A program made the translations under genes and the position numbers. The notes beneath the pieces were generated by a model, which saw only the letters and a list, made by a program, of their open reading frames with translations, was not told the DNA's origin and ran no database searches. From Haloferax volcanii DS2 (GTDB lineage: Archaea > Halobacteriota > Halobacteria > Halobacteriales > Haloferacaceae): a stretch of DNA of 32,000 nucleotides. Positions 1,377 through 32,000 of the stretch are shown piece by piece (within the stretch, counting starts at the first letter, position 1; the number at the start of each line of letters is the position of its first letter). Location: NCBI RefSeq assembly GCF_000025685.1, contig NC_013964.1:405907-437906 (forward strand), written 5' to 3'.

Positions 1377-2207
1377 ATGTCCCGATTCGTGGCGGCCGCG
1401 TGCCAGCTAGACTCCCGAGACGACAAGGCGGCGAACGTGGAGCGGGCGCTCGGCCTCCTCGACGAGGCCGCGGCCGACGGCGCTGATTTCGTGGCGTTCC
1501 CGGAGATGACGACCTTCATCGGCCCGGAAGAGCGGTTCGCAGAGGTCGCGGAGGCGCTGGATGGCCCGACGATACAACGGTTCTCGGAGAAGGCCCGCGA
1601 GCACGGCGTCTTCGTCCACACGGGCAGTTTCTTCGAGCGGATTCCGGACAGCGACCGAGTCTACAACACGTCGGCGCTCATCGGCCCGAGCGGCGAGGTG
1701 CTCGACACCTACCGGAAGGTCCACCTGTTCGACATCGAACTCGACGGCAGCGTCGAACACCGCGAGTCCGACTACGTCGCCCCCGGCGATAGGCCGGTGA
1801 CGGTCGATACCGACCTCGCGACGTTCGGCCTCTCTATCTGCTACGACCTTCGGTTTCCGGGGCTCTACCGGGCGATGGCGCAGTCCGGCGCGAACGTCCT
1901 ACTCGTCCCGTCGGCGTTCACGATGCACACCGGAAAAGACCACTGGGAGCCGCTCCTTCGCGCCCGCGCCATCGAGAATCAGGCGTACGTCATCGCGCCC
2001 GGCCAAATCGGGGACAAGCCGTCGTGGGTCGAGACCTACGGCCGCACGCTCGTCGTCGACCCGTGGGGGAACGTGATTTCGAAGGCGCGGGACCGCGAGG
2101 AAGTCGTCACGGCGACCATCGACCTGTCGCATCTGGACGAGATTCGCCGCGACATGCAGACGCTCCAGCACGCGCGACCGGACGTGTACGAGCGGTCGGA
2201 GAAGTGA
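1377..2207 (+). CDS. carbon-nitrogen hydrolase (nitrilase superfamily, Nit/omega-amidase-like)
   Basis: 276 aa. The Glu-Lys-Cys triad context is visible: VAFPEM, YRKVHLFD, GLSICYDLRFP. It lies 43 nt downstream of the cupin gene, so the two are probably co-transcribed. Confidence 0.9.
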   Translation: MSRFVAAACQLDSRDDKAANVERALGLLDEAAADGADFVAFPEMTTFIGPEERFAEVAEALDGPTIQRFSEKAREHGVFVHTGSFFERIPDSDRVYNTSALIGPSGEVLDTYRKVHLFDIELDGSVEHRESDYVAPGDRPVTVDTDLATFGLSICYDLRFPGLYRAMAQSGANVLLVPSAFTMHTGKDHWEPLLRARAIENQAYVIAPGQIGDKPSWVETYGRTLVVDPWGNVISKARDREEVVTATIDLSHLDEIRRDMQTLQHARPDVYERSEK

Positions 2208-2234
2208 GGACAAGACGCGGGCGACTCGGCTCGA

Positions 2235-10490: not shown

Positions 10491-11753
10491 TCAACCATCA
10501 TCTATGTGAAATGATTCGCGGAGTTCGGTCGTGAGTCGGTGCACGTCCAACTGTTCCGGCAGGTCGTCCCGGCCGTCGTGGTCCGTGAGCGAACCGGGTT
10601 CGAACGCGGGGTTCCGCTTTTCGACCGTCTCCAGGGGAACCTTGGTCGTGACGGTGAAGTGTTCGACCGGCGAGACGAACCCCCAGAGCGCGCCCGCGGT
10701 GTTGAGAACGACGAGAATCGGCGTCCACGGGACCGCGAGGAGCGTGAGTTTCGACTCGGACCGGTAGCTCGCGACGCCGACGCCCGTCACGACGAACAGC
10801 GTGGCGAACTCGACGAGCGAGCCGATTCGGTAGAGCATCAGGTCGGGGAGCGCGCCGGGGACGAGAAACGTGAGGAGCGTTATCAGCGGGATGAGCGGCG
10901 AAAAGCCCCACGCGACGAGGCGGAACTGGAGGAACACCTGATAATGTAGCGGCAGGAGGTCAGAATCCTGTCGCGTCCCCGAGAACCACCGACGGCGCTG
11001 TTTGAGCATCGTCATCACCGACGGTGGTGCCTGATTGCGGAACTTGCAGTCCAGCACGTTGAACTCGAGGTTCGTCGCGCTGGCGGCGCGCCACGCGAAG
11101 TCCGTGTCCTCGGTGATGGTCTTCGAGTCCCACGTGATGTCGTTTTCGAGGCGCGTCCGAATCGCGATGCCGCCGCCCCACGCGTACAGCGGGAATCTGA
11201 ACCGGCCGAACGCCCGCTGCTCGCGCTGGTAGCCGATGCGGAACACCTCCGAGAGATACGTCACCCACGACCCGGTGTACAGCGGGAGTTCCGTAATCTG
11301 GACGATGTCGCCCTCCGGCAACCCCTCGAAGTTCGCCATCAGCGTGTCCTCGTCGAGGTAGAGGACGAACTCCTTGTCGCAGGGAATCTCGCGGCGCGCC
11401 CATTCGAGCGCCCGGCCCTTGTGGGTCGCCGTGCAGGTGAACTCCTCGGGGACGACGTGGACCGACGCACCGTCCACCGAAATCGGCTTCTCGGCGACGA
11501 CCCGAACGTCCGCGAGGCCGTCGGGCACCGCGTCGACCGTCGATTGGACGATGCCCGCCGCGTCGATGGTGATGATACGGACTTGGATGTCGTCGTAGCC
11601 GTAGGCGACGTCGTCGGCGGCGATAGTCTGTCGCCACGCGAGGACGAGCACCTCGACGAACCACGTGAAGACCGACGCCGAGTAGAGCGCGAAGACGGTC
11701 CAGACGAGCATCAAGAGGACGAATATCGCCAGCTCGGACTGGACTTCGAACAT
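10491..11753 (-). CDS. membrane-embedded family-2 glycosyltransferase, processive-synthase-like (D, DxD, TED, QRRRW motifs)
   Basis: The track ORF 10491..12002 has a junk-like N-terminal extension. The ATG at 11753 gives MFEVQSELAIFVLLML... (421 aa). Motifs seen are LYLDEDT, ITEDTDF and LKQRRRWFSG, with N- and C-terminal TM helices. Confidence 0.85.
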   Translation of the reverse strand: MFEVQSELAIFVLLMLVWTVFALYSASVFTWFVEVLVLAWRQTIAADDVAYGYDDIQVRIITIDAAGIVQSTVDAVPDGLADVRVVAEKPISVDGASVHVVPEEFTCTATHKGRALEWARREIPCDKEFVLYLDEDTLMANFEGLPEGDIVQITELPLYTGSWVTYLSEVFRIGYQREQRAFGRFRFPLYAWGGGIAIRTRLENDITWDSKTITEDTDFAWRAASATNLEFNVLDCKFRNQAPPSVMTMLKQRRRWFSGTRQDSDLLPLHYQVFLQFRLVAWGFSPLIPLITLLTFLVPGALPDLMLYRIGSLVEFATLFVVTGVGVASYRSESKLTLLAVPWTPILVVLNTAGALWGFVSPVEHFTVTTKVPLETVEKRNPAFEPGSLTDHDGRDDLPEQLDVHRLTTELRESFHIDDG

Positions 11754-11852
11754 GTAGATTAGACAGACATTCTTGGAGTAATGAATGTACGGACTACGGA
11801 ATCGACCGACTCGGTGCGGGCCGGGAGCCGTCGCCCGCGACGAGACAGAGCA

Positions 11853-11876
11853 GTGCTGGAATCTGAGAACCAGCAC
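11853..11876. promoter_or_regulatory. palindrome GTGCTGG-N10-CCAGCAC upstream of dmsR
   Basis: Perfect 7-bp inverted arms at 11853-11859 and 11870-11876. The site ends 36 nt before the dmsR ATG. Confidence 0.3.
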
Positions 11877-11911
11877 AACCCACTTCCCCCGTGTTGACCG
11901 ACTGACTACCA

Positions 11912-12553
11912 ATGGCTGATTCCACGAGCGGCGTCGCGGAGGCGAAAGCCGACACACTGCGGGAACAACACCTCCAGCTCCTGCTGGAAATCGAGCCTGC
12001 AAAGCGCTGTTCGTGCCCGTTAGCCGGCCCCGACTCGGCGGTCGAAGACGTCCACACGCAGCTCGACGGCGACGTCTGCCACGCCGAGGTGACCGTCGGC
12101 GACGGGGACGCCTCGAAAGTGGTCCACGCGACGACGAGCGTCGGCGACGACTGTCTCTGCCGGGCGTTCGCCGAGTTCGAATGCGTACCGCGAATCCGCC
12201 GCGCCGACGGCGAGTGTATCGTCGTCGAGACGTATCTCTCGGACCGCGCGGTCATCACCGACCTCGTGGAGCGGCTCGACGAACTGACCGAGCGGGTCTG
12301 TCTCAGGCGACTCACCTCCGACGGGCGCGGCGATTCGACCGAGTCGAAGACGGCGACTATCGACCTCTCGTCGCTCACGGCGAAACAGCGCGAGGCGGCG
12401 CTCATCGCCGTCCACCACGGCTACTACGAGACGCCGCGACGGACGGAGTTGGCGACGCTCGCGGAGGCGCTCGGCATCTCGAAGTCGGCGCTCTCCCAGC
12501 GGTTGAACGCCGTGGAAGCCAAGCTCGCGACGGCGGTGTTCGACTCCGAGTAA
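11912..12553 (+). CDS. dmsR: Bat-type HTH (HTH_10) transcriptional regulator, DmsR-like
   Basis: 213 aa. The C-terminus, LTAKQREAALIAVHHGYYETPRRTELATLAEALGISKSALSQRLNAVEAKL, is the haloarchaeal bat-like HTH. The N-terminal half is Cys-rich. It lies immediately upstream of dmsEABCD, as in the described haloarchaeal dms loci. Confidence 0.8.
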   Translation: MADSTSGVAEAKADTLREQHLQLLLEIEPAKRCSCPLAGPDSAVEDVHTQLDGDVCHAEVTVGDGDASKVVHATTSVGDDCLCRAFAEFECVPRIRRADGECIVVETYLSDRAVITDLVERLDELTERVCLRRLTSDGRGDSTESKTATIDLSSLTAKQREAALIAVHHGYYETPRRTELATLAEALGISKSALSQRLNAVEAKLATAVFDSE

Positions 12554-12618
12554 TCCCTCGACTACCCCGCAAAAACGGCAGACAGCTGACGTTCGAGACG
12601 GCTCGGTGCGACGTCGAG

Positions 12619-20478: not shown

Positions 20479-21268
20479 CCGCCGCGAGCGCGGCGTCACG
20501 CGACTCCTGCCCGAGACGTGGCGAGGCCTGACGCTGCTTCTCGCGGGGGTGCTTCTCCTCTACTACCTGCTTCCAATCGGCGCGCTCGTCTTCGCGCAGT
20601 CGCCGGCGTCGCTGGCTACCGACGTGACGAACGAGGTCGTCCTGACCGCCGCCACCAACTCCGTCGTCGCGGCGACGCTCAGCACGCTGGTCGCCGTCGC
20701 CTTCGGCGTTCCCTTGGCCTACTGGCTCTCGCGCACGTCGTTCCGCGGCCGCGACGTGATTCTGGCGCTGGTGATGCTCCCGCTCGTCCTCCCGCCGGTC
20801 GTCAGCGGGATGTTACTGCTCAGACTCGTCGGCCCCGCCGGCCTCGGCCAACTGACGAGCGTCCCGCTGACGCGCTCGCTTTTCGGCGTCGTTCTCGCGC
20901 AGACCTACGTCGCCTCGCCGTTTCTGGTCGTGACCGCGAAGACGGCCTTCGACGGCGTGGACAGGCAACTCGAAGCGGCGGCCCGCTCGCTCGGAGAGGA
21001 CCGCGTCGGGAGCGTTCGACGCGTGACGCTCCCGCTGGCGAAGCAGGGCATCCTCGCCGGCGTGACCCTGACGTTCGCGCGGGCAATCGGAGAGTTCGGC
21101 GCGACGCTCATGCTGGCGTACTACCCGCGGACGCTCCCGGTGCAAATCTGGGTGTCGTACCTCTCGACCGGCCTCGACGCCGCGTTCCCGGTCGCGCTCG
21201 TCCTCGTCGGCATCGCCGTCGGGGCGATTCTGCTGGTCCACGCGCTGGGGACGAACCCGTGGGAGTGA
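20459..21268 (+). CDS. ABC transporter permease (ModB/WtpB-like)
   Basis: 269 aa with 5-6 TM helices and the EAA-like loop LEAAARSLGEDRVGSVRRVTLPLA. It overlaps the binding-protein gene by 20 nt. Confidence 0.85.
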   Translation: MSHRQPNRRERGVTRLLPETWRGLTLLLAGVLLLYYLLPIGALVFAQSPASLATDVTNEVVLTAATNSVVAATLSTLVAVAFGVPLAYWLSRTSFRGRDVILALVMLPLVLPPVVSGMLLLRLVGPAGLGQLTSVPLTRSLFGVVLAQTYVASPFLVVTAKTAFDGVDRQLEAAARSLGEDRVGSVRRVTLPLAKQGILAGVTLTFARAIGEFGATLMLAYYPRTLPVQIWVSYLSTGLDAAFPVALVLVGIAVGAILLVHALGTNPWE

Positions 21269-21324
21269 ACGGATAGAAACCCACCATCGCGCCGCACCCG
21301 AGGGTTGAGTGCGGCGGCCCCCGA

Positions 21325-21414
21325 AGCGACCGTATACCCGTCGCGAGCGTGGGCGACGAGACGGTCGTCTCCGGCGAGGCCGTCGTGTTGTCGCTGGCGC
21401 ACGACGGGGGCGTG
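21325..21414 (+). pseudogene. possible 3' remnant of the missing ABC ATPase gene (TOBE-like tail)
   Basis: About 30 codons with almost exclusively G/C at third positions read SDRIPVASVGDETVVSGEAVVLSLAHDGGV. The frame is open from 21277 but has no ATG. It lies where the ATPase gene of a wtpABC/modABC operon would end. Confidence 0.2.
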
Positions 21415-21482
21415 AGAGGAAGGAACGAAGAGAGGAGTCGGGCTACCGACCGCAGGACTCACTCAGGCCGGCGTCGTCCCGC

Positions 21483-22973
21483 TTACAGCGGGTAGTCGCG
21501 GGGTTCGTGCTGGAGGGAAATCCACTTGTCCTCGGTGATTTCGTCGAGGAAGGCGTCGCTGTTGTAGGTGCCGACGCCGGACGCCCCGGTGCCGCTGAAC
21601 GGGACGTGCGCCTCGTCGTTGATGGGTTGGTCGTTGACGTGGACGTTGCCGGTCTCCATCCGGAGGGCGATTTCCTTGCCGGTGGCGAGGTCGCCGGCGT
21701 GGACCGATCCGGAGAGGCCGTACTCGGTCGCGTTGGCGAGTTCGACCGCCTCGTCGACGTCCGAGAAGGGGATGACGGGCGCGATGGGGCCGAAGTGCTC
21801 GTTGCGGGCCGCGGCCATGTCGTTGGTCACGCCCGAGAGGACGGTCGGCTGGACGACAAGCGAGTCGTCGACGCCGTCGAGGTCGGCCGTCGAGCCGCCG
21901 GTTTCCAGCGTCGCGCCGGCGGCGACCGTCTCCTCGACGTAGCCCAGCATTTCGTCGCGCTGGGACTCGTCGATGATGGGGCCGACGACCGTGTCGTCCT
22001 CGTGGGCGGAGCCGACGGGCAGCTCCGCGGCCCGCTCGGTCAGCTTCTCGACGTACTCGTCGTAGACCGACTCGTGGACGATGTGGCGGTTGATGGAGAT
22101 ACAGACCTGTCCCTGATGGACGAAGCTCCCGAAGACCGCGGCGTCGGCCGCGCGGTCGACGTCCGCACCCTCGGTCACGACGTGGGCGTTGTTGCCGCCG
22201 AGTTCCATCGCGGGCACGGCGAGGTTCTCGCCGGCGATGCCCGAGACGCGCTTGCCGACCTCGGTGGAGCCGGTGAACGCCACCACGTCGCTCTCGGGGT
22301 GGCCGGCGACGCGGTCACCGATTTCCGAGCCGCGGCCGGTGACGACGTTGACGACGCCCTCGGGGAGGTCGGTCTCCTCGAACAGCTTGGCGAACAGCAG
22401 CCCGCCCGTGATGGGGGAGTTGGTCGAGGGCTTCAGTACGACCGCGTTCCCCGCGGCGACGGCGGGCGCGACCGCCCGCATCGACAGGTTCAGCGGGAAG
22501 TTCCAGGGCGAGATGACCGTCACCACGCCCTTCGGGTTCTTCTGCACGATGTTCTCCTTGCCGGGGATGTTGGAGGCGACGTGCTCGCCACGCATCCGAC
22601 GGGGCAGCGTCGCGGCCTCGCTCGCGTGGTCGGAGGCGATTTGGATGGAGGTCTCGCCCATGATGCGCGAGCCGCCGACCTCGTGTGCGAGGAGGTCGAT
22701 AATCTCGTCTTCGTACTCGTTCAGCGCCTGGAGGAACTGCTCGACGACCTCCTGCCGCCGCGCGGGCGGCGCTTCGGCCCACGATTCCTGGGCTTCGGCG
22801 GCCGCCTCGTAGGCGGCGTCGACGTCGGCCTCCGTCCCGCGAGGGACGTGCGCGACCGTCTCGCGGGTCGACGGATCCTCGACTGCGATGCTCTCGCCGC
22901 TCTCACTTTCGGTCCACTCGCCGTCGATGTACAGCGCGTTCCAATCGGCGTCGGTGGCGATGTCGTCGACCAT
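21483..22973 (-). CDS. NAD(P)+-dependent aldehyde dehydrogenase
   Basis: 496 aa with catalytic contexts MELGGNNA (Glu) and HQGQVCISINR (Cys), plus the cofactor motif FTGSTEVG. Confidence 0.92.
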   Translation of the reverse strand: MVDDIATDADWNALYIDGEWTESESGESIAVEDPSTRETVAHVPRGTEADVDAAYEAAAEAQESWAEAPPARRQEVVEQFLQALNEYEDEIIDLLAHEVGGSRIMGETSIQIASDHASEAATLPRRMRGEHVASNIPGKENIVQKNPKGVVTVISPWNFPLNLSMRAVAPAVAAGNAVVLKPSTNSPITGGLLFAKLFEETDLPEGVVNVVTGRGSEIGDRVAGHPESDVVAFTGSTEVGKRVSGIAGENLAVPAMELGGNNAHVVTEGADVDRAADAAVFGSFVHQGQVCISINRHIVHESVYDEYVEKLTERAAELPVGSAHEDDTVVGPIIDESQRDEMLGYVEETVAAGATLETGGSTADLDGVDDSLVVQPTVLSGVTNDMAAARNEHFGPIAPVIPFSDVDEAVELANATEYGLSGSVHAGDLATGKEIALRMETGNVHVNDQPINDEAHVPFSGTGASGVGTYNSDAFLDEITEDKWISLQHEPRDYPL

Positions 22974-23185
22974 GTGCAGTCGTGAGTTGGGGGCGGCGGG
23001 ATAAATGGGGCCGTAATGGGGAGAACTGCTCGCGTTACAACAACCTCAAGAGCCTCTGTCCCCGCGGCGCGCGAGGCGCGGTGACAGTATGGACGTGTCG
23101 AATGAAAGCGTCGTACACAACGACGACGACAGAGAGACGACAGACCGCCGATGAATATATGTTTTTTTAACAGAAACGGGTTCCC

Positions 23186-23380
23186 ATGAGGCGAACCAGG
23201 GCGCTGACGATGTATCTCATCGTTCCGTGTCTGCTCTACGCTGCCGCGTTCGTAATCGTGGTAACTCAGTTTTCGGCTGTCGTCGAAACCAGCACGCTGC
23301 GGCAGTCACACACGGTATTCGCAGCGATTATCGCGGTCGTTCTGCTCGTGAAAAGAGACGAACTGTCCGCCGAGAGGTGA
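23186..23380 (+). CDS. possible small two-TM membrane protein
   Basis: 64 aa with hydrophobic segments MYLIVPCLLYAAAFVIVVTQF and VFAAIIAVVLLV. An AT-rich box (AATATATGTTTTTTTAA, 23154-23170) lies about 25-30 nt upstream, consistent with a leaderless transcript. Codon bias is weaker than in neighbouring genes. Confidence 0.3.
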   Translation: MRRTRALTMYLIVPCLLYAAAFVIVVTQFSAVVETSTLRQSHTVFAAIIAVVLLVKRDELSAER

Positions 23381-23561
23381 GCGCGTTCCGCTCGGGGTGC
23401 GTGCTGTACTGCGTCACGAATTAGAATCGTCCGCCGAGTGCGAGGCGTCATCCGTACGCCTCAAGTTTGCCCATTCGACGGCGAGTCGCCGTTCCGCGAA
23501 ACATCCGAACCGACACCCACCTTCTTTACGGAGCGTTCCGTGGTCGCGAACAGAGGACTCG

Positions 23562-23777
23562 ATGACACCGAAACAGGGTGGACGTACACCGCTTTCTCCT
23601 CGCGCGACGCGAGCGTTCGAGCACCTTCGGCCCCTCGTCGCTGACCGCGACGCCGGGATGCCCGTGGCGGACGCGCGCCAACGAGTTCGCTCGGCGGGTG
23701 AAGACCCCGCGGCCGTCGACGAACTCCTGAACAAGGGCTATCTCTACGAAGTCGAAGGCGACGTGTTCGTGACGTGA
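23562..23777 (+). CDS. small hypothetical protein (71 aa)
   Basis: The internal ATG of track ORF 23397..23777 gives MTPKQGGRTPLSPRATRAFEHLRPLV...LLNKGYLYEVEGDVFVT. GC3 is good from this ATG onward and poor upstream of it. Confidence 0.45.
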   Translation: MTPKQGGRTPLSPRATRAFEHLRPLVADRDAGMPVADARQRVRSAGEDPAAVDELLNKGYLYEVEGDVFVT

Positions 23778-24013
23778 GCGCTGTCGCGCCGGCCTGACCG
23801 GACGCGAAGGCGGACCGCCGAACCGGACGCGACGAAGTGCGAGGCCGCGCCGACCGCGACCCGCTCGCGGGAGTCGGGTGCGACTATCCTGTGACACGCG
23901 AAGATTTTCGGCTATATAGCTCCCGTGCGACTCGTGAGACGCACATATCCGTCACGAGAATCGAGAGGAGCCACGAGATACTTACACCGCGAGCGAGACG
24001 TGCGGGGTGCATC

Positions 24014-24751
24014 ATGAAGAAGGTCCTCGCACGAATCGGAATCGGCAACGCGACCGTCGATACCGTCCTCCCCTCCGATACCGTCCGCCCCGGCGAGACG
24101 GTCGACGCAGAGGTTCGCATCGAAGGCGGGTCGGCGGAACAGGAAATCGGGAAGGTTCGGTTCGAGCTGGAGACCCGCTACCGAACCGACGACGGCTACC
24201 GAGAGGTCGATATCGCGCAGTACACCCTCGCGGAGAGCCTCACTGTCCAACCGGACGAACAAGAGACACGGGACGTGTCACTCGACATTCCCCACGGGAC
24301 GCCCGTCACACTCGGGAACGTCGACGTGTGGGTCGAGACCGAACTCGACATCGAACTGGCCGTCGACCCCGAAGACAAAGACTACCTGAACGTCCAGCCG
24401 ACGCCGCGGCTGCAAGCCGTCTTCGACGCGCTCGACGACCTCGGCTTCTCGCTGCACACCGCCGAGTGCGAGGCCGACCCCCACGGCGTGTTCACCTCGT
24501 CGCGGCGCTTCGTCCAAGAGTTCGAGTTCCGACCCACGTCGGGTCCGTTCGCCGGCGATGTAGACGAACTCGAAGTCGTGCCGCGACCGGACGAAGACGC
24601 GCTCGAACTGTTCCTCGAAGTCGACCGCCGCGGCGGCGTGCTGAGCGAGCTCAGCGACTTAGACGAGCGGACCGTCCAGACGACGGTTCGGACCACCGAC
24701 GTGAGCGACGTGCGCGACGAGCTGGAGTCGCTGATTCGCGCCAACGCCTGA
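24014..24751 (+). CDS. Spo0M-like (sporulation-control protein family) protein
   Basis: The ATG at 24014 gives MKKVLARIGIGNATVDTVLPSDTVRPGETVDAEVRIEGG..., the typical SpoOM N-terminal arrestin-like domain. 245 aa. The upstream part of the track ORF is Arg-rich junk. Confidence 0.8.
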   Translation: MKKVLARIGIGNATVDTVLPSDTVRPGETVDAEVRIEGGSAEQEIGKVRFELETRYRTDDGYREVDIAQYTLAESLTVQPDEQETRDVSLDIPHGTPVTLGNVDVWVETELDIELAVDPEDKDYLNVQPTPRLQAVFDALDDLGFSLHTAECEADPHGVFTSSRRFVQEFEFRPTSGPFAGDVDELEVVPRPDEDALELFLEVDRRGGVLSELSDLDERTVQTTVRTTDVSDVRDELESLIRANA

Positions 24752-24832
24752 CGGCGGCGCACGGGACGAATTACCCCAACTCACTTCCGGCGACCCAACG
24801 TTTTTGCGTCGATTCGGCGTATCTCTGCCGGC

Positions 24833-25843
24833 ATGACGACACTCGAAGACATCGACCTGGACTTCGTCCCGTTCGGCCAGACGGGTCTCCAGACGAGCGA
24901 ACTCCAGTTCGGGACGTGGCGGTTCGGCAAGGAGACCGAACAGGGCAACGTCGAAATCGACGAGGAGCGCGCGCACGAACTGCTCGACGCTTACGAGGCG
25001 GCCGGCGGGCGCTTCATCGACACCGCAGACATCTACGGCGGCGGCGCGAGCGAGCGCTGGATCGGCGACTGGCTCGAAGACCGAGACCGAGAGCGCTTCA
25101 CCATCGCGTCCAAAATCTACTGGCAGATTCGCGACGGCGACCCGAACAGCCGCGGGACGAACCGGAAGAACGTCCGCCACCGCATCGACGCCCTACTCGA
25201 CCGCCTCGACACCGACTACGTTGACGTGCTCTACATCCACCGCTGGGACGACGAGACGCCCACGCGCGAGATGATGAAGACGCTCAACGGCCTCGTCGAA
25301 GACGGGAAGGTCCACTACCTCGGCGCGTCGACGCTCCGACCGAACGCCTGGAAAGTGGCGAGGGCGAACGAAATCGCCCGCGCCGAGGGCTGGGAGCCGT
25401 TCACGGTCGCACAGCCGCGGTACAACCTCGTCGACCGCGAAATCGAAGGGGATTACTTGGAGATGACCCGCTCGTACGGCATCGCGGTCTGCCCGTGGAG
25501 CCCGCTCGGACAGGGCTTTCTCACCGGAAAGTACACCCGCGAGGACGGTCTCACCGGCGAGTCCCGCGCCGCGGAGTCCAGCCGGTTCGAGGAGTCGTAT
25601 CTGACCGAGGAGAACTTCGACGTGCACGACGAACTCGATGCGGTCGCCGGAGAAGTCGACGCGACGCCCGCGCAGACGGCGCTCGCGTGGCTCATGCACC
25701 GCGACGGCGTCACCGCACCCATCGTCGGCGCGCGCACGGTCGAACAGCTGACCGAGAACCTCGAAGCCGCGACCATCGACCTCACGGACGAGCAGGTCGA
25801 CCGCCTGACCGGGGCGAAGCCCGACCCCTACGTGGGGCTCTAA
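24833..25843 (+). CDS. aldo/keto reductase
   Basis: 336 aa with FIDTADIYGGGASE, ASKIYW and YIHRWD, plus C-terminal AKR blocks (PIVGARTVEQLTENL). Confidence 0.92.
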   Translation: MTTLEDIDLDFVPFGQTGLQTSELQFGTWRFGKETEQGNVEIDEERAHELLDAYEAAGGRFIDTADIYGGGASERWIGDWLEDRDRERFTIASKIYWQIRDGDPNSRGTNRKNVRHRIDALLDRLDTDYVDVLYIHRWDDETPTREMMKTLNGLVEDGKVHYLGASTLRPNAWKVARANEIARAEGWEPFTVAQPRYNLVDREIEGDYLEMTRSYGIAVCPWSPLGQGFLTGKYTREDGLTGESRAAESSRFEESYLTEENFDVHDELDAVAGEVDATPAQTALAWLMHRDGVTAPIVGARTVEQLTENLEAATIDLTDEQVDRLTGAKPDPYVGL

Positions 25844-25861
25844 CGGCCTATTTGGGCAGTA

Positions 25862-26881
25862 TTACACGCCCTCGCGAATCGTCTTGTAGAGGTGCGCGAG
25901 CGTCTTCATCCCCGGCGCGTTCCGTTCGAGGGAGTAGAAGGGGTGAAGTTCGGGGTTGAACTTCGCCTTGTATCGGTTGATGCGGCGGTTGTTCGCGCCG
26001 ACGAGGTCGTAAGTCGTCCGCCCGCGGTCCATCGCGTCGCGCATGATGCGCCAGTCCAGCAGGTCGTTGATGGCGAGGTCTGAGTCCACGTCGGCCCGGA
26101 CGCCGCCCTGCCACCGCGACACCGTCTCCTTGTAGTCGACGGCGAGGATTCCGCCGGCGAACTCGCCGTCGATTCGGAGGACGTAGGGGCGAATCTGTCC
26201 CTCGGGAAGGGTGGCGTAGAGGTCCCTGACGAACTCCGGCGACGACCGATAGGAGATGCCCTGCGCTTCGTAGCGCGAGGCGACCTGTTCGACGATGCGC
26301 TCGATTGCTTCGGGGCCGCCCTCCTCGATGGTGTACGCGTCGTCGAGCGCGTTCCGAATGTTCGACCGGGCGTCGCTACTGAAGCTCATGAACACGTCGT
26401 CGACGCCGGGCGAGAGGTCGACGTGGTAGGTGTACTGCGGCGTTATCGCGTAGTCGTTCCACGAGAACGCCCTGAGGTCGTCGTACCGGCCGTCGAGTCG
26501 GATGTGGGCGTAGCGCGGCCGAATCTCGTCGCGGACCCATGCGAGACAGTCGTCGATGAACTCGTGGTGTCGTCCCTCGCGCTTTCGCTGTTTCATGTGG
26601 TCCATGTTCAGGAGGACCGGACCGAGGTACGCGACGCGAAGCTCCGGCGGCGGCGAAAACACCGTCGCTATCGGCCCCTTGTTGATCCGGAACACCGGAA
26701 ACAGTCCGACGACCTCCTCGCCTTTTCGTCCGACGAGCGGAACCAACTCCGCGCCCGCGTGCGCCGCCTGAATCTCCAGCGCGTCGTACTGATGGAACGC
26801 GTTGCCATGCGGTGACTGTTCGACGAACGTGTCCCAGCCGTGGACGTCGTCTCCAGTCGCCCGCCGAACCTCGATACTCAT
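25862..26881 (-). CDS. FemAB-like / BioF2-like GNAT acyltransferase
   Basis: 339 aa. The C-terminal half, GGILAVDYKETVSRWQGG...INDLLDWRIMRDAMDRGRTTYDLVGANNRRINRYKAKFNPEL, matches the FemAB-type acetyltransferase fold pattern (from memory of Acetyltransf_6). Confidence 0.75.
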   Translation of the reverse strand: MSIEVRRATGDDVHGWDTFVEQSPHGNAFHQYDALEIQAAHAGAELVPLVGRKGEEVVGLFPVFRINKGPIATVFSPPPELRVAYLGPVLLNMDHMKQRKREGRHHEFIDDCLAWVRDEIRPRYAHIRLDGRYDDLRAFSWNDYAITPQYTYHVDLSPGVDDVFMSFSSDARSNIRNALDDAYTIEEGGPEAIERIVEQVASRYEAQGISYRSSPEFVRDLYATLPEGQIRPYVLRIDGEFAGGILAVDYKETVSRWQGGVRADVDSDLAINDLLDWRIMRDAMDRGRTTYDLVGANNRRINRYKAKFNPELHPFYSLERNAPGMKTLAHLYKTIREGV

Positions 26882-27079
26882 GAGTAAGGTGCCTGAACTG
26901 TCGCGTCAGCCCTCTTTGTTATGCGCCCGTTATGCGGGTGATTTGACCCGCTTCGGACGGCTCACAACCGCATCACGGCAGTCGTTAACGGCAAATTTCT
27001 GATAAGAATCCGACGACGGTGCAGACGTTCGCGGGTCGGAAGTCGACGAGTCGGGAGGAAGCCGTCAAAGCGGGGACTA

Positions 27080-27095
27080 CCCTCGCGTTTGTAAC
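27080..27095 (+). repeat. isolated copy of the right-edge repeat core (CCCTCGCGTTTGTAAC)
   Basis: Exact match to the 13-bp core CTCGCGTTTGTAA, plus a flanking CC on one side and a C on the other. It ends 47 nt upstream of the PNPOx-like gene ATG. Confidence 0.8.
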
Positions 27096-27141
27096 GCCGG
27101 GTCGAAGCCACCGTTTTACGCGGTGAGACCGAACTTCGACC

Positions 27142-27534
27142 ATGGCCGGTCTCTCCGAACGCGCCGCGTCGCTCGTGACGAGCGAACCGCTCATGGCGCA
27201 CCTCGCGACCAGCGTCGACGACCGCCCCCACGTCGCGCCCGTCTGGTTCGACTACGCGGCCGACCGCGGGGTAATCGAAGTGCTCACCACGGGCCGAAAG
27301 CTCGCTAACATCCGCGAGAACCCGCGCGTCGCGCTCTCCATCCAGAAGGACGAGAAGGGACAGGCGCAATGGAAGGTGACGGTTCTCGGGACGGCCACCG
27401 TCGTCACCGACGACGACGCCCTGCGAGCCGCCACGCGGCGAATCAATCGGAAGTACGGGGCCGATGAGTCGGCGTGGCCCGAAAACGAGTTGGTCCGCAT
27501 CTCGGTGGGGACCGCGACGGTCAGCGAGTACTGA
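27142..27534 (+). CDS. pyridoxamine 5'-phosphate oxidase-like (FMN/F420-binding split-barrel) protein
   Basis: 130 aa. The pattern LMAHLATSVDDRPHVAPVWFDY...IEVLTTGRKLANIRENPRVALSI is typical of the PNPOx-like family. Confidence 0.85.
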   Translation: MAGLSERAASLVTSEPLMAHLATSVDDRPHVAPVWFDYAADRGVIEVLTTGRKLANIRENPRVALSIQKDEKGQAQWKVTVLGTATVVTDDDALRAATRRINRKYGADESAWPENELVRISVGTATVSEY

Positions 27535-27626
27535 AGTCGTCCAGTCGGCCGACGGTGCGTCAGTTTGGCGACGGCGCGTCAGTTTGGCGACGGCGTCTCA
27601 GTCGGACGACGGCGCGTCAGTTTGGC
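27535..27626. repeat. tandem 19-bp direct repeat, 4 full units plus one degenerate unit
   Basis: The units are GACGGTGCGTCAGTTTGGC (27551), GACGGCGCGTCAGTTTGGC (27570), GACGGCGTCTCAGTCGGAC (27589) and GACGGCGCGTCAGTTTGGC (27608). They are preceded by the degenerate GTCGTCCAGTCGGCC. The array spans the convergent junction and contains the stop codon of the symporter gene. Confidence 0.9.
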
Positions 27627-29127
27627 CGTCGTCGAACCGCCGAATCTCCCGCGAGAGCCGCCCGAGGTCGAACCCGGCGTCCGCGAGTCGGGCGGCGACG
27701 AGCGACGCCGCCGTCGACACCACGAACGCCCCGCCGAAGGAGGTGAGATACAGCGGGTCGGCCGCGGGGAGCAGGCCGCCGACGACCGGAATCGACGTGA
27801 TGACGCCGCGGAGGTCGGGGAAGAACGCGAGGCCGACGGCGAGCCCGGTGAGACTGCTCGCGAGCGCGCCGAGGCCGGTGATTCGCGTCGAGTACAGCCC
27901 GTAGACAAGGGGGAAGGCGACGGCCGCGCCGAGCAGGTCGGCGAAGAAGAACAGCCGGAGGACGCTCTGGGCCCGGAGGCTGACGTAAATCGCAGCGGCC
28001 GCGACGACGACTGTGAGCGCTCTCGACCCGAGCGCGAGGTGGCGGTCGCTCGGTTCCGCGAGCAGGCGGGCGAGGTCGGCGGTCACGAGGCTCGAAAGCG
28101 CGTTGAACAGCGTGTCGATGGAGCTCATCACGAGCAGGAGCGCGAGGAGGACCGCCGCGAGGACGAGCCACTCGGGGAACGCCTCGCCGAGGAGGACGAA
28201 GAAGGCGGCGTCGGCGTTGTAGCCCGCGCTCGCGGGGTCGGTGACGACGGCGGCGTTACCGACCGCGACGACGCCGAAGAAGGCGGTGACGAACACGATG
28301 GCGCCGTTGGCGAGCGCCGCGGTACGGAAGCTCCGTCCGACCGTCTCCGACGAATCGGCCGCGTAGATGCGCTGCCACCACGTCTGGTTGATGAGTTCCG
28401 CGCCGAGGATGGCGAACGCGAGCGCGAGGCCGAACTGGAGGCCGGCGACCGCCCCGAGGTCGAGGAGCGCGGGGTTCGTCGCCGTGATGCCGTCGATGGC
28501 GGCGGCGGGGCCGCCGAGCGCGACGAGCGCGCCGGCGAACGCGAGCAGCAAGAGCGGGATGACGACGACCGCTTGGACCGCGTCGGTCGCGATGCTGGCC
28601 CGGAGGCCGCCGTAACTCGTGTAGAGCAGGACGAAGCCGCCGACGAGGAGCGCGGTCTGCCACTGCGGGACGCCGGCGACGAGCGAGAGCGCGCCCGCGA
28701 TGCCGGTCAGTTCGGCGGCGAGGAAGATGAACATGTAGAGCGCGCTCACGAGGAGGACGAAGGCGTACATCGCGGTCCCGTAGCGGGCGTGGGCGTACTC
28801 GGTCAGCGAGTGGCCTTCGGGGATGAGTTCCCGGATTCGCGGGCCGAGGCGGGCGTAGACGAGCATCGGGACGGCCTCGCCGACCGCGTAGCCGACGACG
28901 GCCGCGATACCGAAGCTCGCGCCCGCTTCGGGGGCCGAAAACAGCACCCAGACGCCCATGACGGACGCGACGAGCGTCGCCGTCGTCCGCCGGCTTCCCG
29001 CGGAGTCGCGGGCGCTGATGAGGTCCTCGACGGAGCCGACGCGACCCCGGGAGAACCACACGCCGACGCCGGTAAACGCGACGAGCGTCGCGACGGTTAG
29101 CCCGAGCGCGACGGTCGAACTCACCAT
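27598..29127 (-). CDS. sodium:solute symporter (SSS) family transporter
   Basis: 509 aa with about 13 TM helices. The SSS-like N-terminus reads SRGRVGSVEDLISARDS...ATLVASVMGVWVLFSAPEAG. It overlaps the upstream TenA-like gene by 7 nt. Confidence 0.85.
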   Translation of the reverse strand: MVSSTVALGLTVATLVAFTGVGVWFSRGRVGSVEDLISARDSAGSRRTTATLVASVMGVWVLFSAPEAGASFGIAAVVGYAVGEAVPMLVYARLGPRIRELIPEGHSLTEYAHARYGTAMYAFVLLVSALYMFIFLAAELTGIAGALSLVAGVPQWQTALLVGGFVLLYTSYGGLRASIATDAVQAVVVIPLLLLAFAGALVALGGPAAAIDGITATNPALLDLGAVAGLQFGLALAFAILGAELINQTWWQRIYAADSSETVGRSFRTAALANGAIVFVTAFFGVVAVGNAAVVTDPASAGYNADAAFFVLLGEAFPEWLVLAAVLLALLLVMSSIDTLFNALSSLVTADLARLLAEPSDRHLALGSRALTVVVAAAAIYVSLRAQSVLRLFFFADLLGAAVAFPLVYGLYSTRITGLGALASSLTGLAVGLAFFPDLRGVITSIPVVGGLLPAADPLYLTSFGGAFVVSTAASLVAARLADAGFDLGRLSREIRRFDDGQTDAPSSD

Positions 29128-29906
29128 CGGTCGTCACCCGGTCGGGACGAACCTCGGCCCAGTTCGTACGCCTCGTCGAAGAACGCGACCTCCAGTTCGA
29201 CCGTGCGACGGAACAGCTGTTCGAGCCGCCGTTGTCGGCGCGGCGAGGCGGCCGCACCCTCGCGGTCGAGTTCGGTTCGGAGCCACTCGACGAACGACGC
29301 GAAGTCGTCGACTGCGTGGAGGTCGACCCACTCGGAGAGGTAAAATCGAGACGGGGAGTCGTCAGCGTCGGCCGCGGCGGTCGCCCACGACAGATAGACC
29401 CACTCGGCGGGGACGAGCACCGCCAGCGTCTCGGCGTACCCGCCCTGCCCCGCGGCGCGTTCGAGGAGGTCGATGAAGGCGCGCGTCGTCGGCGTGGTTT
29501 TCGGCTCCGAGTAGACCGATTCGGGCACGTCGAGCGCGTCGAACGCCCGCAGGAAGTAGTCGTCCTCGTCGTCGGTCAGGACGCCGAGAAACGAGACGAG
29601 TTCCGACTTCGACGCCATCGTCGGCGCGGTGCCGACGGCGTGACCGAAGACGCCGACGAGCGTCTCCACGAAGGCGTAGTCCTGCACGAGATACTGCCTG
29701 AACACGTCGTCCGCGAGTTCGTCGGCGGCGAGTTCCCGCGTCAGTCGGTGCGCGGTCGCGTCGTCCCACGACTCGCCCGCGCGGTCGCGGAGCCAGTCGG
29801 TAAAGCGCGGGTCCGACCGCGACGCGGCGAACTCGTCGTACGTCTCGGGGGCCGGCTGGCTCTCACCGGGCGAGCCGACCGAGTCCGACGGGTCGCCGTC
29901 GGTCAT
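29121..29906 (-). CDS. TenA/THI-4/PqqC-family protein lacking the active-site Cys (TenA_E-like)
   Basis: The ATG at 29906 (ATGA overlap with the upstream tenA stop) gives 261 aa. Motifs are FRQYLVQDYAFVE and ELEVAFFDEAY. At the position of the catalytic Cys it reads LVPAEWVY instead of LLPCxW. Confidence 0.8.
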   Translation of the reverse strand: MTDGDPSDSVGSPGESQPAPETYDEFAASRSDPRFTDWLRDRAGESWDDATAHRLTRELAADELADDVFRQYLVQDYAFVETLVGVFGHAVGTAPTMASKSELVSFLGVLTDDEDDYFLRAFDALDVPESVYSEPKTTPTTRAFIDLLERAAGQGGYAETLAVLVPAEWVYLSWATAAADADDSPSRFYLSEWVDLHAVDDFASFVEWLRTELDREGAAASPRRQRRLEQLFRRTVELEVAFFDEAYELGRGSSRPGDDRW

Positions 29907-30568
29907 AGCGGCCACTCCTCTTGCCGCCACGCGGCGTCCCAAAACAGGTACTCGTACTGCGCCGACGTGCGGAACAGGTCGCGGTAGCGCTCGCGGTCCG
30001 ACTCGGTCGCGCTCGCGGCCACGTCGTCCATGAGCGCCTTACACCAGTCGGTGAGTTCGGTGAACTCGTCGCCGGCGTACATCTCGACCCACGCGGCGTA
30101 CTGGTCGTGGTCCGGGACACCCGCGTCCGCGAGGCGGCGTCCCGTCTCGTTGAACCCCCACATGCAGGGGAGCAAGGCGGCGACGATATCGCCGAACGAG
30201 CCGAGCGTCGCGGTGCGAACGAGGAAATCCGTGTAGGCCCGGGTCGTCGGTGACGGCGTCGTGGCTTCGAGTTCGTCGGTGTCGATGCCGAACTCGGCGG
30301 CGTAGCTCCGGTGGAGGTCCATCTCCTCGTTGACGGTCGATTCGAGGAGGCTCGCGAACGTCCCCATCGAGTCGAGCGTCGGGGCCTTCGCGGCACCGAG
30401 CGCGAAGAGACGACTGTACTCGACGAGGTAGACGTAGTCCTGCCGCACCCAGTAGCGGAACGGCTCCTCGTCGAGGCTCCCCTCCCCGAGTCGGACGACC
30501 ATCGGATGGTCGAGGATGGCCGACCAGAACTCGTCGGCCTCGTCGTGAATCGTGTCTGTGAACGCCAT
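29903..30568 (-). CDS. tenA: thiaminase II / aminopyrimidine aminohydrolase (TenA, Cys-type)
   Basis: 221 aa with FRYWVRQDYVYLVEY, AALLPCMWGFNETG (catalytic Cys context as in B. subtilis TenA) and AQYEYLFWDAAW. Confidence 0.85.
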   Translation of the reverse strand: MAFTDTIHDEADEFWSAILDHPMVVRLGEGSLDEEPFRYWVRQDYVYLVEYSRLFALGAAKAPTLDSMGTFASLLESTVNEEMDLHRSYAAEFGIDTDELEATTPSPTTRAYTDFLVRTATLGSFGDIVAALLPCMWGFNETGRRLADAGVPDHDQYAAWVEMYAGDEFTELTDWCKALMDDVAASATESDRERYRDLFRTSAQYEYLFWDAAWRQEEWPL

Positions 30569-30702
30569 AGCGAGTAATCGAAGAAGACGCTGAAAAGAAT
30601 TATGATGGGGTAGTATTCATTAGTTATTCGCGCGGGAGAGCGGCGTCTCGGACCAGCGTATCGGATGTGTTCAACGGGTTCGCCACCGTTCGACGGTTTC
30701 TA

Positions 30703-30778
30703 AGTCCGGACTGTGTTCCAAATCCGGACTGTTGTCCGGTCGACGGCCGATTAGCCGCCCGGTTGTCCAGTTGTCCGG
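30703..30778. promoter_or_regulatory. cluster of short repeats in the tenA-tbp divergent spacer
   Basis: AGTCCGGACT (a perfect 10-bp palindrome, 30703-30712) is followed by GTGTTCC. Then come TCCGGACTGTTGTCCGG (30723-30739) and GGTTGTCCAGTTGTCCGG (30761-30778). The shared elements are CCGGACTGT and GTTGTCC. Confidence 0.35.
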
Positions 30779-30807
30779 TGGTTAACGGGGAGAAACGACC
30801 CCGGTAG

Positions 30808-30814
30808 TTTAAGG
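30808..30814 (+). promoter_or_regulatory. TATA-like box (TTTAAGG) for tbp
   Basis: It lies 27-33 nt upstream of the tbp ATG, a spacing typical of leaderless haloarchaeal transcripts. Confidence 0.35.
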
Positions 30815-30840
30815 CGAATGAGTGTCAACTATTTCACAAG

Positions 30841-31407
30841 ATGTCGCAGGTGAACGCCATCGGGTCCATCGAGATTCAGAACGTCGTCGCTTCGACGGAA
30901 GTTCCGGTCGAGCTCGACCTCGAACGACTCTCGCTCGACATGAACGGGACCGATTACGACCCCGAGAACTTCCCCGGACTCGTGTATCGGACTCGGAATC
31001 CCAAGTCGGCGTGTCTCGTCTTCCGGTCGGGCAAAGTCGTCTGCACCGGCGCGGACAGCGTCGACGACGTGAGTACGGCCATCGAAACGCTGTTCGACGA
31101 GTTCACCGAACTCGGAATCCCGATTCCCGACGACCCGGATATCACCGTCCAAAACATCGTTTCGAGCGCCGACCTCGGGGCGGCGCTCAACCTGAACGCG
31201 TTGGCTATCGGCCTCGGTCTCGAAGCCGTCGAGTACGAACCCGAGCAGTTCCCCGGACTCGTCTACCGCCTCGACGAACCGAGCGTCGTCGTCCTCATGT
31301 TCGGGAGCGGGAAAATCGTGATTACGGGGGTGAAGCGGGTTGGCGACGCCGAAACAGCCCTCGAAACCGTCGACGATGACGTTCGCGAACTCGGACTACT
31401 CGGGTGA
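30841..31407 (+). CDS. tbp: TATA-box binding protein
   Basis: 188 aa with two TBP repeats: IQNVVASTEV...FPGLVYRTRNPKSACLVFRSGKVVCTG and VQNIVSSADL...FPGLVYRLDEPSVVVLMFGSGKIVITG. Confidence 0.93.
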   Translation: MSQVNAIGSIEIQNVVASTEVPVELDLERLSLDMNGTDYDPENFPGLVYRTRNPKSACLVFRSGKVVCTGADSVDDVSTAIETLFDEFTELGIPIPDDPDITVQNIVSSADLGAALNLNALAIGLGLEAVEYEPEQFPGLVYRLDEPSVVVLMFGSGKIVITGVKRVGDAETALETVDDDVRELGLLG

Positions 31408-31508
31408 GCACTCGTCGGGTACTCGGTCGGCGGTGAGCGACGGGGTGTTGTCCGACGTGTTGGCGTGGTTGGGAGGTTGTGAACTGGAAGTCGGCAGACC
31501 GGTCACGG

Positions 31509-31612
31509 ATTCGTTGTTCGTTGTTTGTTGTTGGATTTTGTGCTGCTTTGTTATTTTGTTGTTGTTATTATTTTGTTGCTGTTGTTTTATTGTTTTTTGT
31601 TGTGTTGAGTAG
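31509..31612. repeat. strand-asymmetric T/G-rich low-complexity block (GTT/TTG-type runs; almost no C or A on the top strand)
   Basis: Read directly: cgttgttcgttgtttgttgttggattttgtgctgctttgttattttgttgttgttattattttgttgctgttgttttattgttttttgttgtgttgag. It is followed by the palindrome CTAGTAG-N5-CTACTAG (31618-31636). The Cys/Phe/Leu-rich track ORFs over this block are artefacts. Confidence 0.9.
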
Positions 31613-31716
31613 TAGAACTAGTAGTCTAGCTACTAGTGATAGTGTGATGTCGAGATACCATGACTACTCTTCGAGGACCGGGTGTCACTCACGAGTAGAC
31701 CATCTGTCCTCGGGAA

Positions 31717-31796
31717 CACACACACACCCCCCTCGCGTTTGTAACGGCTACGCCAGTCCCTAGGGAGATTCGACACACCCCCCTCGCGTTTGTAAA
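31717..31796 (+). repeat. two forward ORB-like repeats: (AC)n-CCCCCC-TCGCGTTTGTAA
   Basis: Copy 1 (31717-31745) is CACACACACACCCCCCTCGCGTTTGTAAC. Copy 2 (31773-31796) is ACACACCCCCCTCGCGTTTGTAAA. Confidence 0.85.
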
Positions 31797-31857
31797 TATA
31801 GGGGCAAAATCAACCGATAATTCCTCACCCGTTGACCCACCCCCCACGCCGATTCGC

Positions 31858-31996
31858 GTTACATTCGCGAGGGTGGTGTGTCTGCACTGCCCCTTTCACC
31901 ACTCGACGTTACAAACGCGACGGTACTCCCCCGTTCGATTACAAACGCGAGGGTGGTCTCTCGGAGGCCGAGTTACAAACGCGAGTGTACCCCCCA
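31858..31996 (-). repeat. four reverse-orientation ORB-like repeats (GTTACAAACGCGAG core)
   Basis: Copy 3 (31858-31881) is GTTACATTCGCGAGGGTGGTGTGT, which is degenerate. Copy 4 (31908-31932) is GTTACAAACGCGACGGTACTCCCCC. Copy 5 (31939-31958) is TTACAAACGCGAGGGTGGTC. Copy 6 (31972-31995) is GTTACAAACGCGAGTGTACCCCCC. The array runs to the window end. Confidence 0.85.
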
Positions 31997-32000
31997 CCGA

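Follow-up and report, generated by a model that had tools for sequence, protein, structure and literature searches.

The question raised by this locus is whether the repeats crowded at the right-hand edge of the window, by which we mean the whole analysed stretch of 32,000 nucleotides (Haloferax volcanii DS2, contig NC_013964.1, positions 405,907 to 437,906), form a replication origin and, if so, which replicon and which initiator protein they serve. The original prediction, made from the letters alone, read them as an ORB/DUE origin, i.e. inverted origin recognition boxes (ORBs) around an AT-rich unwinding element (DUE), with the initiator gene and further ORBs lying beyond the edge. This reading coincides with a published locus, at which we find eight ORBs, two zones of low duplex stability and an adjacent orc6 gene: with a probability of about 0.97, the repeats belong to ori-pHV3, a replication origin of the Orc1/Cdc6-dependent type on the H. 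volcanii mini-chromosome pHV3 (438 kb). That origin is already known, and as an origin the locus adds nothing new.

The identification relies on an exact protein match and on published coordinates. The TATA-box-binding protein (TBP) encoded in the window is identical to H. volcanii ADE01327.1 (A0A384KP21_HALVD), and the replicon, at 437,906 bp, is pHV3. Positions 20841-32000 align without a mismatch over 11,160 bp to a contig (L001) that runs on past the window edge, and all coordinates above 32000 given here were derived from that contig with an offset of 20840. It carries an Orc1/Cdc6 gene at 11361-12593, which corresponds to 201-1433 when numbered from the window end; in the genome paper (Hartman 2010), orc6 (HVO_B0001) occupies pHV3 201-1433 and is described as 'associated to oripHV3'. 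The tbp-orc6 intergenic region measures exactly 793 bp, and Norais et al. (2007, PLoS Genet 3:e77) place ori-pHV3 in a 793-bp intergenic sequence between these two genes, so that gene positions, intergenic length, orc6 coordinates and replicon size all agree with the published locus. The orc6 offset, the TBP match and the size of pHV3 together indicate that the window is the last 32 kb of the linearised record of a circular replicon. As this record is cut inside ori-pHV3, the window holds only the left 593 bp of the intergenic region, while the remainder and orc6 itself lie across the start of the pHV3 record.

The predicted initiator gene was found where it had been expected. It encodes a 410-AA Orc1/Cdc6 protein and begins 201 bp past position 32000, with its ATG at 32201. 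Pfam assigns to the product AAA/AAA+, Cdc6 lid and Cdc6 C-terminal winged-helix domains, and its best relatives among solved structures are the ORB-bound ORC1 of A. pernix (2v1u, 1e-65) and Orc1-1 of S. solfataricus (2qby_A).

Experimental support for origin function comes from the earlier literature: the prediction of ori-pHV3, its cloning on an autonomously replicating fragment and its mapping all date from 2007, and the origin was later taken up in reviews and in the genome paper. According to Norais et al. (2007), a 693-bp fragment (pCN26) transforms H. volcanii at high frequency, i.e. has ARS activity, and a pulsed-field blot assigns this fragment to pHV3. The same paper describes two DUEs in the tbp-orc6 intergenic region, both inside the active fragment, as well as replication-initiation-point (RIP) mapping, in which the transition points fell inside or close to the DUEs of each origin. 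In the absence of selection, plasmids with pCN26 are lost, and the fragment by itself thus gives no stable maintenance. Activity of ori-pHV3 in replication profiles is stated in secondary citations of the marker-frequency work of Hawkins 2013.

Analysis of the repeats (Table 1) showed that the 13-bp core, CTCGCGTTTGTAA, occurs as two forward and four reverse copies between 31732 and 31985. The two exact forward cores, at 31732-31744 and 31783-31795, each lie within an identical 23-mer, ACACACCCCCCTCGCGTTTGTAA, and are preceded by (AC)n and a C-run as had been noted. The four reverse copies described at the outset are likewise present, at 31859 (two mismatches), 31909 (one mismatch), 31939 and 31973 (both exact). 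What comes after them is either GGGTGGTGTGT or a C4-6 run set off by a 4-6-nt spacer, in keeping with the earlier description. At up to two mismatches, the core is found seven times in the window compared to 0.39 +/- 0.60 times in dinucleotide-preserving shuffles, none of which reached seven. The expectation of further ORBs beyond the edge was also borne out, with two more exact reverse copies and one degenerate copy, CTTACTTGCGCGA, between the window end and orc6. The full origin therefore comprises eight ORBs, two forward and six reverse, plus degenerate copies, with the strings directed away from the AT-rich spacer; ORB1 to ORB8 lie 469, 418, 342, 292, 262, 228, 171 and 60 bp from the orc6 start.

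Table 1. Features of the ori-pHV3 locus in window coordinates; positions above 32000 lie beyond the window and were taken from the overlapping contig.
Feature	Position	Strand	Remarks
Solitary class B ORB, GGGGACTACCCTCGCGTTTGTAAC	27069-27095	+	Exact core 27082-27094; 4.6 kb from the origin
tbp (TATA-box-binding protein)	30841-31407	+	Pfam TBP, E = 1.9e-58; left flank of the origin intergenic region
T/G-rich degenerate (GTT)n tract	31509-31612	+	Candidate DUE; T-run region just 3' of tbp
Palindrome ACTAGTAG-TCTAG-CTACTAGT	31617-31637	.	8-bp stem; three CTAG sites; conserved in close relatives only
ORB1, class A	31717-31745	+	(AC)n + CCCCCC + TCGCGTTTGTAAC; 22/24 columns invariant, 5 species
ORB1-ORB2 spacer element GCTACG...CTAG	31747-31763	.	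Invariant columns; CTAG at 31760 invariant
ORB2, class A	31772-31796	+	22/24 columns invariant
AT-rich ORB2-ORB3 spacer	31796-31825	.	Second low-stability zone, candidate DUE; 60-64% AT; flanked by inverted ORBs
Degenerate forward C-string half-site, GACCCACCCCCCACGC	31834-31849	+	88% identical to the string end of ORB2; partly conserved
ORB3, class A	31858-31882	-	AATGTAA core variant; 24/24 columns invariant
ORB4, class B	31907-31931	-	Core, GTAC spacer, string of opposite polarity; least conserved ORB, 7/24 columns invariant
ORB5, class A	31938-31962	-	Repeat and core match
ORB6, class B	31972-31995	-	Origin continues past the window
ORB7	~32029-32052	-	Beyond the window
Degenerate ORB	~32060-32078		Beyond the window
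ORB8	~32140-32163	-	Beyond the window
TATA box TTTATTA	~32168-32174		Conserved; ~27-33 bp upstream of the orc6 ATG; abutted by ORB8

Two classes of copy can be distinguished. Class A (ORB1, 2, 3, 5 and 7) has the form (AC)n-CC[A/C]CCC-TCGCG[T/A][T/A]TGTAA, while class B (ORB4, 6, 8 and the solitary site) has, ahead of the same core, (G)TAC-like bases and a G-run on the opposite strand. The repeats are polar and carry a C/G-string that adjoins the core. ORB2 and ORB3, inverted with respect to each other and with outward strings, bracket a 63-bp spacer, which places an AT-rich element between inverted ORBs.

Conservation across the genus follows this architecture closely. PLSDB matches to the region were confined to Haloferax megaplasmids, and the number and polarity of the ORBs and their distances to the orc gene are almost unchanged in H. 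alexandrinus, H. lucentense, H. gibbonsii, H. mediterranei and H. larsenii. Inside ORBs, 76% of the columns of a five-species alignment are invariant, as compared to 34% of those separating the ORBs and 3% of those upstream of ORB1; ORB1, 2, 3, 7 and 8 are the best conserved. A scan with the Orc6 protein yielded 16 further full-length Haloferax loci (93-100% identical) and a split copy in H. profundi; all 16 have six to eight copies arranged as two forward and then reverse, with fixed copies at about -171 and -60.

The core was suspected from the start to be specific to a divergent Orc paralogue, and its distribution agrees with this. It is located upstream of every Haloferax Orc6 orthologue examined and is missing in front of Orc genes from other genera with 35-45% identity; these carry string-bearing inverted repeats of their own, ACCCCTCGTACCGAGTGAG in Natrinema, Haloterrigena and Haloarchaeobius and TTACAACTCGACAAAGGGGGGT in Halosimplex, with the strings likewise directed away from a central region. 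Outside the origin neighbourhood, no copy (at up to one mismatch, or as a relaxed 12-mer) was present in 200 kb of the sister megaplasmid pBNX82-1 of H. alexandrinus; the 7-kb flanks of 16 Haloferax loci (22 scanned) gave two hits only, both at two mismatches. Since the core accompanies Orc6 orthologues and is missing from the sister megaplasmid segment and from the upstream regions of other Orc genes, it appears to pair with Orc6 and not to be a dispersed regulon motif. From this co-occurrence at the sequence level, binding of the ORBs by the cognate Orc6 can be predicted. Origin-specific recognition was raised as a possibility already by Norais et al. (2007).

A single exact copy lies well to the left of the array. 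This solitary ORB is positioned 48 bp upstream of the ATG of a PNPOx-family gene (Pfam) and is preserved in H. gibbonsii and H. mediterranei as an isolated stretch of identity amid intergenic DNA that has diverged. Neither this copy nor the half-site between ORB2 and ORB3 had been listed in the original prediction. Searches of the intergenic region for structured RNA gave no Rfam match at E <= 1, and a scan for bacterial-type promoters and terminators, which tells nothing in an archaeon, returned no promoter and one hairpin, GCCGTTCAAACGGC, beyond the window, as compared to 2.2 expected.

Two zones of low duplex stability are present, and a stretch within each had been listed in the original prediction. 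The AT-rich stretch at the switch in orientation falls in a low-stability zone at 31783-31835, with a dG of up to -34.7 kcal per 30 bp compared to a window mean of -46.9. The block described as almost pure T+G consists of 65 T, 26 G, 8 A and 5 C in 104 nucleotides and is the most T+G-skewed 100 bp of the window (0.89 vs. 0.50 +/- 0.058); Tandem Repeats Finder calls it a degenerate (GTT)n of ~33 units. Together with the adjacent palindrome it makes up the larger zone, 31508-31675, which is the longest easily melted stretch of the window, and this makes the (GTT)n tract a candidate for one of the two published DUEs. The CTAG-rich palindrome itself is real, but its stem is 8 bp and not 7 as first given. 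As a significant structure in its own right it is weak, with a hairpin energy of -5.9 kcal/mol (z = -2.3) and conservation only among close relatives. The two zones fit the 'two DUEs' of Norais et al. (2007), as these are described in the text of that paper.

It is possible, although we lean against it, that neither the T/G block nor the CTAG palindrome contributes to the working of the origin, that the short AT-rich spacer between ORB2 and ORB3 is the functional unwinding element, and that the block is a fast-evolving (GTT)n microsatellite whose T-runs terminate tbp transcription. The spacer alone occupies the classical position between inverted ORBs, whereas the block, called as a degenerate 3-bp tandem repeat, lies outside the array, about 100 bp past the end of the tbp reading frame, with the sense strand of tbp being the T-rich one. 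Its sequence is not conserved and cannot be aligned between species, as reflected in the 3% invariant columns upstream of ORB1; its length and unit differ by species, and it is weak or absent in the larsenii and elongans group. On the other hand, tracts of the (TTG/TGTTG)n type reappear at -650 to -780 in the group formed by volcanii, gibbonsii and denitrificans, and an AT-rich, T-skewed tract is found at the same place in most species despite the turnover in sequence. No other stretch of the window melts as easily over such a length, and the two DUEs reported in the intergenic region by Norais et al. (2007) are both part of the active fragment. We retain the block as a candidate DUE beside the ORB2-ORB3 spacer.

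Two other explanations would deny the locus its role as the resident origin, and we give next to no credence to the first of them, namely that the repeats are transcription-factor operators regulating orc6, tbp or a regulon and that there is no replication origin. The abutment of ORB8 on the TTTATTA box of orc6 and the solitary copy near the PNPOx-family gene do mean that some copies occupy promoter positions. A motif spread over many promoters, named in the original prediction as the outcome that would speak for a regulon, is nevertheless not what the 200 kb of sister replicon and the flanks of related loci contain, and the regulon reading is rejected on these grounds. Moreover, the array has the grammar of an origin, with inverted copies around an AT-rich spacer beside orc1/cdc6, and the fragment replicates autonomously with mapped initiation points (Norais et al., 2007). 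A regulatory role of promoter-proximal ORBs is compatible with an origin and is no alternative to it. No more believable is an origin belonging to an integrated or recently captured mobile element instead of the resident replicon, a variant that the original prediction had left room for alongside the replicon itself. Haloarchaeal origin-initiator pairs are thought to spread via capture of extrachromosomal elements (PMC2841640), and related origins do occur on plasmids that differ in size and content. However, synteny across the genus takes in the origin, Orc6 and much of the neighbourhood (tenA, tbp and an M20 peptidase). The window around the origin has a GC content like that of the host (0.62-0.73), the codon usage of pHV3 is native and this replicon is regarded as a mini-chromosome; in addition, no integrase or transposase was called among the genes within 10 kb on each side of tbp in the overlapping contig.

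How ori-pHV3 might fire can be outlined from the archaeal ORB/Orc paradigm and the structurally characterised Orc1-ORB complexes. Orc6 monomers would bind each polar ORB through the core TCGCG(W)(W)TGTAA and the adjacent C/G-string, and the inverted ORB2 and ORB3, aided by ORB1, would position MCM loading at the AT-rich spacer or at the neighbouring (GTT)n zone, either of which may be the first to melt. ATP-bound Orc6 would then recruit MCM, and bidirectional synthesis would start in or near the unwinding elements. Through the six same-sense ORBs, which extend as far as the TATA box of orc6, transcription of this gene is probably linked to origin occupancy; at ORB8 in particular, which abuts this box, Orc6 occupancy probably feeds back on the transcription of its own gene. 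Binding, first-melting zone and autoregulation are thus all proposed here by analogy with better characterised origins.

The distribution of CTAG sites adds a further, more speculative aspect. CTAG is the m4C target of the conserved orphan methyltransferase HVO_0794 and is under-represented in haloarchaea. The window contains seven sites as compared to ~33 expected, and four of the seven are inside the origin; over 20 Haloferax loci, the density is 5.8 per kb in origin regions vs. 0.35 per kb in flanks. Low GC content does not account for this enrichment as a by-product, because other windows with GC <55% keep the avoidance, at 0.66 per kb as opposed to ~5-6 per kb in the origin. The site between ORB1 and ORB2 is present in 20/20 Haloferax loci, while its neighbouring bases vary. 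As a long shot, the ori-pHV3 family may carry selected CTAG sites, comprising this fixed site and the clusters beside the large unwinding zone, and together with the conserved solitary ORB these would point to methylation-coupled control of pHV3 initiation or copy number involving accessory sites. A functional methylation link at ori-pHV3 is unlikely. Among the chromosomal origins in a published analysis only oriC2 was CTAG-dense, and a methyltransferase-free H. volcanii strain grows normally. If such control did exist, the CTAG layer would be an archaeal counterpart of GATC/SeqA sequestration.

Apart from the identification itself, the locus serves as a calibration case, in which an origin and an unseen initiator gene were correctly predicted from sequence alone. 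The two ORB classes, the spacing fixed across the genus in ~20 species, the position of ORB8 at the TATA box, the invariant CTAG and the solitary ORB extend a known system by small steps, and, ORB8 apart, they go unmentioned in the accessible part of the text of Norais et al. (2007). What value remains is accordingly comparative, together with two small leads that the solitary ORB and the invariant CTAG offer. Details of this kind could inform experimental work on Orc-ORB specificity and on what CTAG methylation does in haloarchaea.

As a locus, the window feature does not differ from the ori-pHV3 of Norais et al. (2007), whose two AT-rich zones and ORB-like repeats are those seen here. With regard to CTAG only, and as an idea, an analogy may be drawn to the GATC/Dam/SeqA system at oriC of E. 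coli, in that an otherwise rare methyltransferase target is concentrated in the origin; unlike in that system, we know of no reader of hemimethylated CTAG in archaea.

Canonical ORB/DUE origins such as Sulfolobus oriC1, Pyrococcus oriC and H. volcanii oriC1 have several traits in common with ori-pHV3: the repeats are polar with a G-string at the end, inverted copies flank an AT-rich element, orc1/cdc6 follows directly downstream, and the initiator is of the Orc1-1 type. The likeness to the canonical ORB noted at the outset holds for GTTnCA and the G-string, the only elements in common, and does not extend further: the euryarchaeal ORB consensus is GTTCCAGTGGAAAC-AAA----GGGGG, and its mini-ORB part has no match at up to three mismatches in the 20.6-kb locus, so that membership in the canonical ORB sequence family is rejected. 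The core of ori-pHV3 is instead TCGCGWWTGTAA with the string directly abutting, as opposed to a canonical string ~8 bp off; its copies come in two classes with the string on either strand, and the array is asymmetric, with two copies against six. The ori-pHV3 element hence works like an ORB while standing outside the canonical ORB sequence family. A same-sense run of ORBs beside the initiator gene is also known from oriC2 of Haloarcula hispanica, in which, however, the cluster proposed to repress is downstream of cdc6, whereas the run in ori-pHV3 is upstream, between the spacer and orc6. More broadly among haloarchaea, each ORB family is tied to its own Orc/Cdc6 family (Wu et al., 2012, BMC Genomics 13:478; Wu et al., 2014; PMC4010727), and the literature on this origin-initiator pairing counts pHV3 as having one orc gene with one predicted origin; the core of ori-pHV3 and Orc6 form a pair of the same kind.

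The apparent truncation of the ori-pHV3 origin at the window edge is an appearance only: position 32000 (11160-11161 of L001, the contig that runs past the edge into orc6) is where the linearised record of the circular pHV3 replicon starts and ends, and orc6 lies at 201-1433 from that start. For circular replicons, features at record ends need to be read across the junction. Beyond it, an invariant TTTATTA box was found about 27-33 bp 5' of the orc6 ATG, with ORB8, the last of the origin recognition box-like repeats, directly upstream. Because ORB8 adjoins a box at this distance from the ATG, the sequence suggests that the orc6 transcript is leaderless and that its promoter is occupied by the initiator.

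Between ORB1 and ORB2, an invariant GCTACG and an invariant CTAG 8 bp further on make up a conserved spacer element, which bears no likeness to any ORB and may be bound by another factor. This CTAG was found in 20 of 20 Haloferax species. More generally, the m4C target CTAG, avoided elsewhere, is concentrated in the origin, with 5.8 sites per kb in origin regions versus 0.35 in their flanks and 0.66 in composition-matched DNA (loci L001 and L008-L028). Over the window as a whole, GATC is even more strongly depleted than CTAG: trinucleotide counts predict about 114 sites, and 5 are present (ratio 0.04). H. volcanii restricts GATC-methylated DNA, and the low count is consistent with this.

One ORB, GGGGACTACCCTCGCGTTTGTAAC, stands alone at a distance of 4.6 kb from the origin, and the ATG of a PNPOx-family gene follows 48 bp downstream of it. 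In H. gibbonsii and H. mediterranei this ORB is kept as an island amid diverged flanks; it may serve Orc6 as an accessory site or reflect Orc6 action on a promoter.

Coordinates of features at and around the origin and of related repeats
Feature	Position	Strand	Remark
Solitary ORB	window 27069-27095	+	
CTAG sites at origin	window 31618, 31626, 31633, 31760		
GCTACG	window 31747-31752		invariant; directly after ORB1
ORB8-orc6 upstream region	L001 11300-11360 (window-equivalent 32140-32200)		
TGAATA	window-equivalent 32185-32190		invariant; downstream of TTTATTA box
Repeats upstream of Orc6-related genes	L029-L033 about 2520-2830; L034 about 1897-2594		

In the H. larsenii and H. elongans group (loci L010 and L021-L025), the ORB array is retained, and the gene upstream of the origin is one other than tbp. 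At the H. larsenii locus (L010), the only one of these with annotation, that gene encodes a metal-cation transporter, and other AT-rich low-complexity DNA, e.g. TATCC repeats, takes the place of the (GTT)n tract. Outside Haloferax, Orc genes of Natrinema, Haloterrigena, Haloarchaeobius and Halosimplex with 35-45% identity to Orc6 are accompanied by inverted, string-bearing repeats of their own (ACCCCTCGTACCGAGTGAG; TTACAACTCGACAAAGGGGGGTGTGT). These Orc6 relatives and their repeats represent a ready series for studying the joint change of ORB and Orc specificity, sharing with the ori-pHV3 ORBs the same geometry of outward-pointing strings.
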